Shown here in pieces: positions 14,908 to 15,217 of a stretch of 44,513 nt of DNA. The stretch comes from a virus (taxonomy: Duplodnaviria; Heunggongvirae; Uroviricota; Caudoviricetes), in the IMG/VR virus record IMGVR_UViG_2703718788_000013; one strand, written 5' to 3'. Position numbers and translations under genes: made by a program. The notes beneath the pieces were generated by a model. That model did no database searches. It was not told the origin of the DNA and saw only the letters and a program-made list of their open reading frames with translations. Within the stretch, counting starts at the first letter, position 1. Every line of letters begins with the position of its first letter.

Positions 14908-14983
14908 GGCCCTTTAGCTCAGTGGTGAGAGCGAGCGACTCATAATCGCCAGGTCGCTGGTTCAAATCCAGCAAGGGCCACCA
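14908..14983 (+). tRNA. tRNA with CAT anticodon, ileX-like (tRNA-Ile2 or Met)
   Basis: 76-nt cloverleaf, acceptor GGCCCTT/AAGGGCC, anticodon loop CTCATAA, CCA end; resembles remembered E. coli ileX. Confidence 0.8.
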
Positions 14984-14984
14984 A

Positions 14985-15061
14985 CCGCCACTAGCTCATC
15001 AGGAAAGAGCGTCAACCCTTTAAGTTGAGTGTGCGAGGTTCGAGTCCCCGGTGGCGGTCCA
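14985..15061 (+). tRNA. tRNA-like gene, apparent anticodon TTT (Lys-like), non-canonical features
   Basis: Acceptor CCGCCAC/GTGGCGG, anticodon stem TCAAC/GTTGA, loop CCTTTAA (C at position 33), T-loop TTCGAGT, CCA end; A-C mismatch in T-stem. Confidence 0.55.
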
Positions 15062-15063
15062 GT

Positions 15064-15139
15064 GCCGACTTAGCTCAGTAGGTAGAGCAACTGACTTGTA
15101 ATCAGTAGGTCACCAGTTCAATTCCGGTAGTCGGCACCA
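15064..15139 (+). tRNA. tRNA-Thr (anticodon TGT)
   Basis: Acceptor GCCGACT/AGTCGGC, anticodon stem ACTGA/TCAGT, loop CTTGTAA, CCA end. Confidence 0.7.
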
Positions 15140-15142
15140 TAT

Positions 15143-15217
15143 GCGGGCATCGTATAATGGCTATTACCTCAGCCTTCCAAGCTGATGATGCGGGTTCGAT
15201 TCCCGCTGCCCGCTCCA
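15143..15217 (+). tRNA. tRNA-Gly (anticodon TCC), glyT-like
   Basis: GCGGGCATCGTATAATGGCTATTACCTCAGCCTTCCAAGCTGATGATGCGGGTTCGATTCCCGCTGCCCGCTCCA, matches remembered E. coli glyT. Confidence 0.85.

Follow-up and report, generated by a model that had tools for sequence, protein, structure and literature searches.

A tRNA Operon of a Lambdoid Escherichia coli Prophage with an ileZ-Type Gene, an Atypical UUU Member of the argN Family and Trimmed Copies of Host thrU and glyT

The window analyzed here, that is, the whole stretch of 44,513 nucleotides in the IMG/VR virus record IMGVR_UViG_2703718788_000013, contains four head-to-tail tRNA genes on the plus strand, with the anticodons CAU, UUU, UGU and UCC, spanning positions 14908–15217. 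This four-gene array is confirmed as a genuine tRNA operon of a lambdoid Escherichia coli prophage. In the best reading, to which we give a little over even confidence, the array is a constitutive, late-boosted operon supplying tRNA-Ile2 (AUA), tRNA-Thr (ACA) and tRNA-Gly (GGA/GGG) for the prophage and its cargo, and the second gene, referred to below as X, is a decoding-impaired descendant of an arginine tRNA. This reading draws on what was observed, namely the genes with their homologies, the derivation of genes 3 and 4 from the host, the conservation of the promoter, the codon statistics and the decay of X. The array belongs to an ordinary kind of element but has a non-standard composition; its genes, as called by ARAGORN, the Rfam tRNA model RF00005 and the Prokaryotic Genome Annotation Pipeline (PGAP), are as follows.

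14908–14983, plus strand: tRNA 1, ileZ-type tRNA-Ile2, anticodon CAU (ARAGORN cat; Rfam 72.5 bits; PGAP)
14985–15061, plus strand: tRNA 2 (X), argN family, anticodon UUU (ARAGORN ttt; Rfam 44.4 bits; PGAP)
15064–15139, plus strand: tRNA 3, copy of thrU, tRNA-Thr(UGU) (ARAGORN tgt; Rfam 73.8 bits)
15143–15217, plus strand: tRNA 4, copy of glyT, tRNA-Gly(UCC) (ARAGORN tcc; Rfam 64.9 bits)

An initial annotation had already placed four tRNA genes with these anticodons at 14908–15217; ARAGORN gives the same coordinates and anticodons and accepts the second gene, which had been flagged as atypical, and Rfam concurs. The Rfam model matches all four genes independently (gathering score 29; E values from 2e-14 to 2.4e-06), and because of these scores and E values a chance match is excluded. 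The spacers between the genes measure 1, 2 and 3 nt. The region 14700–15400 of the window matches the chromosome of E. coli 377323_2f (NZ_CP039404.1) with 100% identity, and PGAP names the four genes there tRNA-Ile, tRNA-Lys, tRNA-Thr and tRNA-Gly. The interpretation first given to the array, the supply of A-ending codons, applies to three of the genes; for the atypical one it fails.

Codon demand and the three canonical genes

Codon usage was compared between 50 genes of the prophage (RefSeq coordinates) and 42 core genes elsewhere on the same chromosome. The cargo set comprises the YagU, PerC, NleG, HECT E3 and NleC genes, and the late set comprises the lysis and morphogenesis genes. The ratios of prophage to host frequency are as follows.

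ATA: early 3.7, late 2.7, cargo 12.9
ACA: early 3.0, late 2.0, cargo 3.3
GGA: early 2.0, late 1.9, cargo 3.2
AAA: early 1.3, late 0.8, cargo 1.0

The enrichments of ATA, ACA and GGA are significant, with p from 1e-4 to 1e-28. The AAA codon occurs at 33.6 per 1000 in the cargo and at 34.1 per 1000 in the host (p = 1.0), and it is already the major lysine codon of the host (34 per 1000). Over the prophage as a whole, the most over-represented codons are AGG (7.2), AGA (6.2), ATA (4.3) and CGG (3.5), followed by ACA (2.4), TCA (2.4), AGT (2.3) and GGA (2.1), with AAA at rank 31 of 61. Three of the four anticodons match this prophage-wide demand, most strongly for ATA in the effector genes, and the UUU anticodon of gene 2 matches no codon demand. 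The three canonical members would add to the pool of minor tRNAs that read codons 2–13 times commoner in the prophage than in the host core genes.

Taken in full, the initial interpretation would have all four genes, the second as a working tRNA-Lys, supply AUA, AAA, ACA and GGA for an AT-rich cargo, and in this full form it is highly improbable. Its expectation that the four codons are favored in the cargo is borne out for ATA, ACA and GGA, and both PGAP and ARAGORN call gene 2 tRNA-Lys(UUU). The expectation fails for AAA, with its cargo ratio of 1.0, and E. coli has six tRNA-Lys(UUU) genes. Nor is the enrichment tied to the cargo, since the early and morphogenesis genes are also enriched approximately 2–3.7-fold. 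The most enriched codons, AGA and AGG, are left unserved by the window array and would be read by the Arg(UCU) tRNA that occupies the same slot in sister arrays. Furthermore, gene 2 has C33, U73 and an A51·C63 mismatch, and decays in most genomes. As an organizing principle of the array, A-ending codons suited to AT-rich DNA are likewise abandoned, genes 3 and 4 being near-identical copies of host genes.

A lambda-type −1 frameshift heptamer, GGGAAAG, lies at window positions 29261–29267 at the end of gpG. Its 0-frame codons, GGA and AAG, match the anticodons of gene 4 (UCC) and gene 2 (UUU), which is probably a coincidence.

Gene 1 has the anticodon CAU and the acceptor stem GGCCCUU/AAGGGCC, including C4-G69 and C5-G68, which are the acceptor-stem determinants of TilS. 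These are the sequence features of a tRNA-Ile2, and PGAP, which uses tRNAscan-SE, names the gene tRNA-Ile. The early proposal that the CAU gene reads AUA is reasonable given these pairs, the PGAP call and the ileZ type of the gene; C34 is presumably converted to lysidine, and the resulting tRNA-Ile2 would read AUA. Together, genes 1 and 2 have about 90.5% identity to ileZ-argN of Shiga toxin 2 (Stx2) phages over 219 bases (window 14843–15061). A chromosomal tRNA-Ile(CAU) gene, presumably ileY, is present in 3090 of 5426 E. coli chromosomes (also at loci L133 and L146). It is followed by an apparent fossil of gene 2 (...AUCAGGAAGAG...CUCGAUGGCGGUC), and this suggests that the chromosomal gene may derive from the array of an ancient prophage.

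Genes 3 and 4 are near-identical to the host thrU and glyT genes and keep their operon order. Gene 3 agrees with chromosomal thrU in 75 of 76 bases, the sole change being G57A, and gene 4 agrees with chromosomal glyT in 75 of 75. The A57 of gene 3 is private to this genome, in that one record matches at 100% and the others among the matches listed at 99.6%. The segment of the two genes matches essentially every E. coli genome at 99.4%, in two pieces spanning thrU...glyT, and the host operon is annotated in the order thrU-tyrU-glyT-thrT-tufB. The 3-nt spacer TAT between genes 3 and 4 corresponds to the host sequence minus tyrU and both of its spacers (about 206 bases), with the junction reading CACCAT directly followed by ATGCGGGC. 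The order and the residual spacer bases thus match those of the host operon. Unlike that operon, the prophage segment has no thrT or tufB, its flanks are trimmed to within 0–2 bases of the mature tRNA ends and a phage promoter drives its genes.

In the relative L126, thrU is retained along with the host spacer TCAAGTCC and half of tyrU, the 5′ one. Because this locus retains such an intermediate, the phage lineage took up the host operon as DNA and lost tyrU later. Since the host has a single thrU–glyT locus (median of one place per genome), the prophage doubles the gene dosage of thrU and glyT. The tRNA-Thr(UGU) of gene 3 would read ACA, and the tRNA-Gly(UCC) of gene 4 would read GGA and GGG. 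A codon-supply benefit of the doubled dosage is plausible.

Lineage, decay and possible roles of the second gene

X has the sequence CCGCCAC UA GCUC AUCAGGAAA GAGC G UCAAC CCUUUAA GUUGA GUGUG CGAGG UUCGAGU CCCCG GUGGCGG U CCA and parses as a regular cloverleaf with C1-G72, a 5-bp anticodon stem (UCAAC/GUUGA), an encoded CCA and the discriminator U73. The anticodon loop consists of 7 nt (C32 C33 U34 U35 U36 A37 A38), and in the T stem (CGAGG/CCCCG) A51 is located opposite C63. The oddities noted at first, namely C33, C1-G72 and an A-C mismatch in the T stem, can each be read in the sequence. An nhmmer search of the fetched loci, combined with a structural parse, identifies X as a member of a phage-specific family with the body CCGCCAY...RUGGCGG and many anticodon arms; a scan with the 15-mer GGGAAGAGCGGCAAC gave mostly unrelated contigs and was filtered with nhmmer. 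The body of X is homologous to that of argN and its anticodon is UUU, not UCG or UCU, which makes it a member by descent and not by decoding. The relatives of X carry UCG, UCU or UUU anticodons with U33, C33 or A33, and the loops of the family, with their scores against the Rfam tRNA model, are as follows.

CUUCGAA: argN of Stx phages, Arg(UCG), for example locus L004 (44.4 bits)
CUUCUAA: Arg(UCU), with a perfect T stem (A51-U63), in Ile-X-Thr-Gly arrays such as locus L005 (56.4 bits)
CCUUUAA: window type (window X, 44.4 bits)
CUUUUAU: Lys type with canonical U33, G51-C63 and compensatory U4-A69, locus L012 (53.2 bits)
CAUUUAA: A33, Buttiauxella and others, with a copy in locus L155 (39.1 bits)

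With E up to 0.01, the model finds no match in the damaged X copies of L003, L314 and L316, in the CAUUUAA copy of L064 or in the copy with a 5-nt loop of L156. Compared with the Arg(UCU) form, window X carries U33C and C35U in the loop and U63C in the T stem.

A73 is an identity element for lysyl-tRNA synthetase (LysRS), and no tRNA depends more strongly than tRNA-Lys(UUU) on t6A37 and mnm5s2U34 to bind its codons. Because X has C33 where tRNA-Lys(UUU) has U33 and U73 where it has A73, and because its body is unrelated to that of lysT, gene 2 should not be filed as tRNA-Lys. On the E. coli initiator tRNA, C33 blocked the formation of t6A37 by E. coli TsaBCDE (PMC8887486). Folding and processing of X may still occur, and the UUU anticodon would lead to charging with lysine, but C33, A51·C63 and U73 should make its decoding of AAA and AAG poor. 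Constraint on X seems relaxed in this lineage, and efficient decoding by it is unlikely. The early suspicion of a variant or pseudo-tRNA was reasonable, and with C33, U73, A51·C63 and the decaying copies it has become the leading view of the gene.

Of 5426 complete E. coli genomes, 798 have the window type of X, 279 of them at an identity of at least 99%, 474 at 95–99% and 45 at 90–95%. X, Thr and Gly are contiguous in 629 of these 5426 genomes, and the Arg(UCU) form of X is present in just 16. PGAP names X tRNA-Lys in 11 of 11 sampled rows with copies of at least 98.7% identity and leaves it unannotated in 13 of 13 sampled rows at 96–97%. One class of the unannotated copies has a one-base deletion in the D stem (PPompW prophages of enterohemorrhagic E. 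coli lineages), and the other combines U8C, C11U and C4U. In addition, exact and Hamming comparisons were made in 112 complete IMG/VR arrays among the matches listed, which had been retrieved by an intact CCUUUAA arm. At most one mismatch from the consensus is found there in 62% of the arrays for X, 81% for ileZ, 87% for Thr and 78% for Gly; 17 of the 77 bases of X are fixed by the retrieval query, yet X is still the least conserved gene. The damaged copies in this set carry U8C with C11U (24 arrays) or the one-base D-stem deletion (13 arrays). At other loci, X has lost the whole anticodon arm or has an 11–12-nt loop together with a broken T loop.

The conservation of the CCUUUAA loop within the E. 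coli lineage is unusable as evidence of selection, since the copies were retrieved by that sequence. The cloverleaf of X lies 2.7 kcal/mol above the minimum free energy fold, and a repair of C63 to U makes the cloverleaf the minimum. Minimum free energy folding was rejected as a test of tRNA-likeness, since the bona fide tRNA-Ile2 gives no cloverleaf and argN is 6.3 kcal/mol off. An ochre suppressor or a frame-shifted anticodon (UUA) was likewise rejected for X, which has a regular 5-bp stem and a 7-nt loop and offers no support for a shifted register.

Several observations weigh against X being a decaying, decoding-impaired gene. Its Rfam score of 44.4 bits passes the threshold and equals that of the accepted argN of Stx phages. 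X is kept identical in 61 of the 112 listed IMG/VR arrays and at 99% identity or more in 279 RefSeq genomes, with the reservation that the copy counts of X and of the array are not phylogenetically independent. The canonical CUUUUAU form occurs at an identity of at least 99% in 13 E. coli genomes and of 95–99% in 7 more. The CAUUUAA forms of other Enterobacterales show compensatory changes in the anticodon stem and the T stem, the former being ACGAC or AUAAC, each pairing with GUUGU. Meanwhile, a captured copy of thrU has itself turned UUU (loop CUUUUAA, G35U and A26G) and is named tRNA-Lys by PGAP in 6 complete genomes. One of these six genomes is NZ_CP025842.1, with the match at 1040149–1040264. 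This thrU-derived UUU tRNA of a sister array is also found in at least 5 IMG/VR loci including L334; it is apparently a second, independent UUU switch in the array family. Such recurrence of UUU looks more like selection for UUU than like drift. Moreover, in the relatives from other genera the X body is more conserved than ileZ, so there, at least, X is not junk.

The relatives of X in other Enterobacterales (Yokenella, Rosenbergiella and others; loci L032, L042, L122, L131, L156 and L183–L273) have the stem GCAAC/GUUGU with a loop of just 5–6 nt. At least 11 short loops are present, namely TTAAT, TTTAT, ATAAT, TAAAT, TGAAT, ATGAT, CAGGT, CATAGT, CTCAGT, CCAGAT and CCAGGT. Six different short loops stand on 100% identical 68-nt X bodies (the 'GGCAAC' relatives), and the short-loop loci have flanks that are 50–93% identical and ileZ genes that are 73–100% identical. 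Because the body is under stronger constraint than ileZ while the loop is free, the short-loop relatives look like a conserved tRNA-like RNA with a selected, non-decoding function.

Applied to the window, an explanation of this kind would have X kept as a folded tRNA-like element, either an RNase P substrate punctuating the precursor or a body with a decoy-like role, and not as a decoder. X would then free the 3′ end of tRNA-Ile2 one base upstream and define the Thr precursor, with the anticodon loop free to change. The array spacers of just 1, 2 and 3 nt are in keeping with this, as are the six 5-nt loops on identical 68-nt bodies at loci where the flanks and ileZ diverge. The same can be said of the non-canonical 6-bp anticodon stem of the CAUUUAA group, of the copies without the anticodon arm that retain the acceptor, D and T arms, and of the 5–6-nt loops, which cannot decode, yet belong to genes that persist where ileZ itself has decayed. 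However, the damage to X in E. coli is located in the body (U8C, the D-stem deletion and acceptor C-to-U changes) and not in the loop, which is the opposite of the prediction. RNase P, furthermore, needs little beyond an acceptor-T minihelix, and the strict conservation of the anticodon stem would remain unexplained. For the window gene, this explanation is therefore considered improbable.

Another possible, but unlikely, explanation is that the array, or at least X, serves survival of tRNA-cleaving anti-phage systems and not codon matching. A UUU anticodon on an argN body would be charged by LysRS via the anticodon, escape cleavage and sustain the decoding of AAA and AAG. AriB of the PARIS system cuts at U36-A-A-U-C↓A41, where U39A abolishes and A41C inhibits the cut (PMC12409363). 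PrrC cleaves 3′ of U33 in tRNA-Lys (PMC2610378), and phage tRNA-Lys rescues infection from PrrC170, whereas host tRNA-Lys does so poorly (PMC11555353). For P2 Old, the main way in which lambda is blocked is reported to be amputation of the tRNA-Thr(UGU) anticodon arm, and the nuclease depends on paired CNG motifs at 28–30 and 40–42 (PMC12445682). X combines its UUU anticodon with U36-A-A-G-U-U at 36–41, CAA at 28–30 and C33; it has neither UAAU/C↓A nor CNG and is thus without all three recognition or cleavage contexts. Simultaneously, AAA is unenriched, so codon supply cannot explain a UUU tRNA, and UUU arose or persists repeatedly in the array family.

In two other arrays, the thrU copy is changed at exactly G42 and U43, with UCAUC in L005 (L005:1683–1758, E. 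coli RMDEC364) and UCACC in L355 instead of UCAGU. Both variants disrupt the CNG motif at 40–42 and have a shorter anticodon stem, the two-factor pattern that PMC12445682 reports for Old-resistant phage tRNA-Thr. They are suggestive, but they concern other prophages and not the window, in which the Thr gene has the host anticodon arm and should be sensitive. In that report, overexpressed host ThrU gave little or no protection from P2 Old (PMC12445682). The gene glyT was also considered as a target of P2 Old and rejected; it has paired CAG/CUG motifs and A37, but is not named as a substrate in the consulted text of PMC12445682.

X itself offers further difficulties for a role in survival of nucleases. 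It is degraded in most genomes carrying it, and the thrU-derived UUU tRNA retains the AriB site UAAUC↓A. The U73 in place of A73 should weaken recognition by LysRS. The C33, with the loss of t6A37 (an effect taken from PMC8887486), should weaken decoding. No nuclease is known to be sensitive to base 33, and the yeast gamma-toxin is insensitive to it. A bolder proposal, which seems quite unlikely, treats the argN-family X as a phage-specific tRNA scaffold with the anticodon arm as a hot spot. Temperate lambdoid phages would be under recurrent selection for a non-host surrogate of tRNA-Lys(UUU) surviving PrrC, PARIS and Old, and the change at base 33, which adjoins the bond cut by PrrC, would be escape and not decay. 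The reading preferred here remains that of a codon-supplying operon in which X is a decoding-impaired descendant of an arginine tRNA.

Transcription of the array and setting in the prophage

The constitutive and late-boosted expression proposed for this operon is derived from the elements upstream of it, which are as follows.

14008–14697, plus strand: Q antiterminator gene (PGAP 'bacteriophage antitermination protein Q', with a clean open reading frame in the window)
14681–14709, plus strand: candidate pR′-like late promoter TTGCAA-17-TATATT, overlapping the end of Q (weak match of a consensus scan alone, 9/12)
14761–14790, plus strand: tR′-like intrinsic terminator hairpin AAAACCCGCccacaaGCGGGTTTT with a T run, read from the sequence
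14870–14898, plus strand: sigma-70-like promoter of the array itself, TTGCAA-17-TATTAT (scan match), ending 9 nt before tRNA 1

The position of the pR′-like candidate matches that in lambdoid phages. The hairpin at 14761–14790 is strong and is also listed on the minus strand by the scan, with A and T runs flanking both sides, and from its position it would act as a tR′-like terminator. The lysis genes begin at 16660, downstream of the array.

Related loci were anchored on the 3′ end of the ileZ-type gene, which gave 175 occurrences from at least 120 viral loci, 49 genome loci and RefSeq loci. Among the 170 loci listed with enough upstream sequence, 132 have the element TTGnnn-17(rarely 16)-TA(T/C/G)(T/C)AT at 9–11 nt 5′ of the first ileZ-type tRNA. 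The loci without the element are for the most part tRNA-Ile genes on the chromosomes of other genera, under different promoters. The spacer and the flanks of the element differ between related loci, and because the element is conserved while these vary, the array appears to be a self-contained transcription unit, located also in the path of Q-dependent late transcription.

The expression, processing, modification and charging of the array, and any benefit from it, are inferred. In the lysogen, the array would be transcribed from its own conserved sigma-70-like promoter, and on induction it would also be transcribed by Q-antiterminated read-through from the late promoter. The precursor would be split mainly by RNase P at each 5′ end, followed by exonucleolytic trimming, because the spacers are 1–3 nt long and the CCA ends are encoded.

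The lambdoid prophage is inserted beside a tRNA-Ser(CGA) gene at 892–981 (RefSeq annotation), presumably serU. A frameshifted tyrosine integrase gene at 1009–2059 directly adjoins it, and this site is the attachment site of the prophage, which may be unable to excise with such an integrase. The frameshifted integrase is followed by the early region (kil, DicF, hok/sok), DUF968, RusA and Q; then by the tRNA array, an opposite-strand YagU-family gene, the holin, lysozyme and Rz genes and a PerC-family gene; and finally by lambda-like head and tail genes and the type III secretion system (T3SS) effectors NleG, HECT-type E3 and NleC. The DicF RNA lies at 5317–5368 on the minus strand (Rfam 76.4 bits), and the sok antitoxin RNA lies at 11818–11992 on the plus strand (Rfam 115.3 bits), overlapping the 5′ end of the annotated hokD (11987–12142); both RNAs are typical of Qin/Rac-like lambdoid prophages. 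The effector cargo occupies 40000–44259, with a GC content of 0.33 for the NleG family, 0.37 for the HECT-type E3 ligase and 0.46 for NleC. These three genes use ATA at 51, 33 and 12 per 1000, respectively, which is the highest ATA usage in the window. Between the window and NZ_CP039404.1 there is a 1-nt intergenic indel at about 16630–16660, before the holin gene, so that transferred gene coordinates shift from the holin on.

Significance and comparison with known systems

Hundreds of RefSeq genomes already carry annotations of the array, as do a few phage records such as PhiR47_1 and vB_EcoM-606R7. In the open-access literature searched, no account of its mosaic origin or of its anticodon changes was found, nor anything relevant on ileZ, argN and argO. 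Since the array is common, any effect that it has would touch many pathogenic and commensal strains; the carriers of X-Thr-Gly include avian pathogenic E. coli O1, SMS-3-5 and enteropathogenic E. coli-like strains whose prophages hold T3SS effector genes. If codon supply is the true function, the prophage would have, built into it, a means of aiding the expression of ATA-rich virulence genes acquired by horizontal transfer and of its own late genes. In addition, it provides a clean example of a temperate phage capturing and trimming a host tRNA operon, which bears on the origin of phage tRNA sets. For annotation, caution is warranted, as gene 2 is labeled tRNA-Lys in every sampled RefSeq copy of at least 98.7% identity, although its features argue against normal function. 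If, on the other hand, the array serves survival of nucleases, tRNA-based escape from PARIS, PrrC and Old would extend to temperate prophages; so far the demonstrated cases are tRNAs of virulent coliphages, T5 and SP15 among them, and a coliphage tRNA library.

The closest known system is the ileZ-argN-argO array found in Stx phages, among them 933W and the Sakai prophages, and named here after GenBank annotations. It is the commonest architecture, Ile-Arg(UCG)-Arg(UCU), with 60 of the 175 listed occurrences, followed by Ile-Arg(UCU) (26), Ile-Lys(UUU)-Thr-Gly (16), Ile-Arg(UCU)-Thr-Gly (12) and rarer forms. The window array shares with it the slot between Q and the downstream late genes, after a terminator, as well as the promoter TTGnnn-17-TATTAT 9–11 nt upstream, the ileZ-type CAU gene in first place and the homology of genes 1 and 2. 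It differs in the loop of gene 2, which is CCUUUAA and not CUUCGAA (Arg UCG), and in the absence of argO (Arg UCU), the remaining slots being taken by the thrU and glyT copies; ARAGORN finds no Arg tRNA in the window array. Downstream, there is no stx, and an opposite-strand YagU-family gene is followed by the lysis genes. Because the anticodon of gene 2 differs and argO is absent, the array is best described, from its sequence, as a mosaic variant of the ileZ-argN-argO class and not as a standard member.

A second comparison concerns the nuclease-resistant tRNAs of phages, namely the tRNA-Lys(UUU) of T5 against PARIS and the coliphage tRNA-Thr(UGU) against P2 Old. The UUU and UGU anticodons of the window array coincide with the main targets of PARIS, PrrC and Old. 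In contrast, the nuclease-resistant phage tRNAs are canonical, proven decoders of virulent phages for which rescue has been shown, whereas X is a sequence-based candidate with C33, U73 and a mismatched T stem. Finally, compared with tRNA-Lys(UUU) from E. coli, of the lysT family, X has the same UUU anticodon followed by A37 and A38. It differs from that family in its unrelated, argN-family body, in C33 and U73 in place of U33 and A73, in C1-G72 in place of G1-C72 and in the anticodon stem UCAAC/GUUGA.

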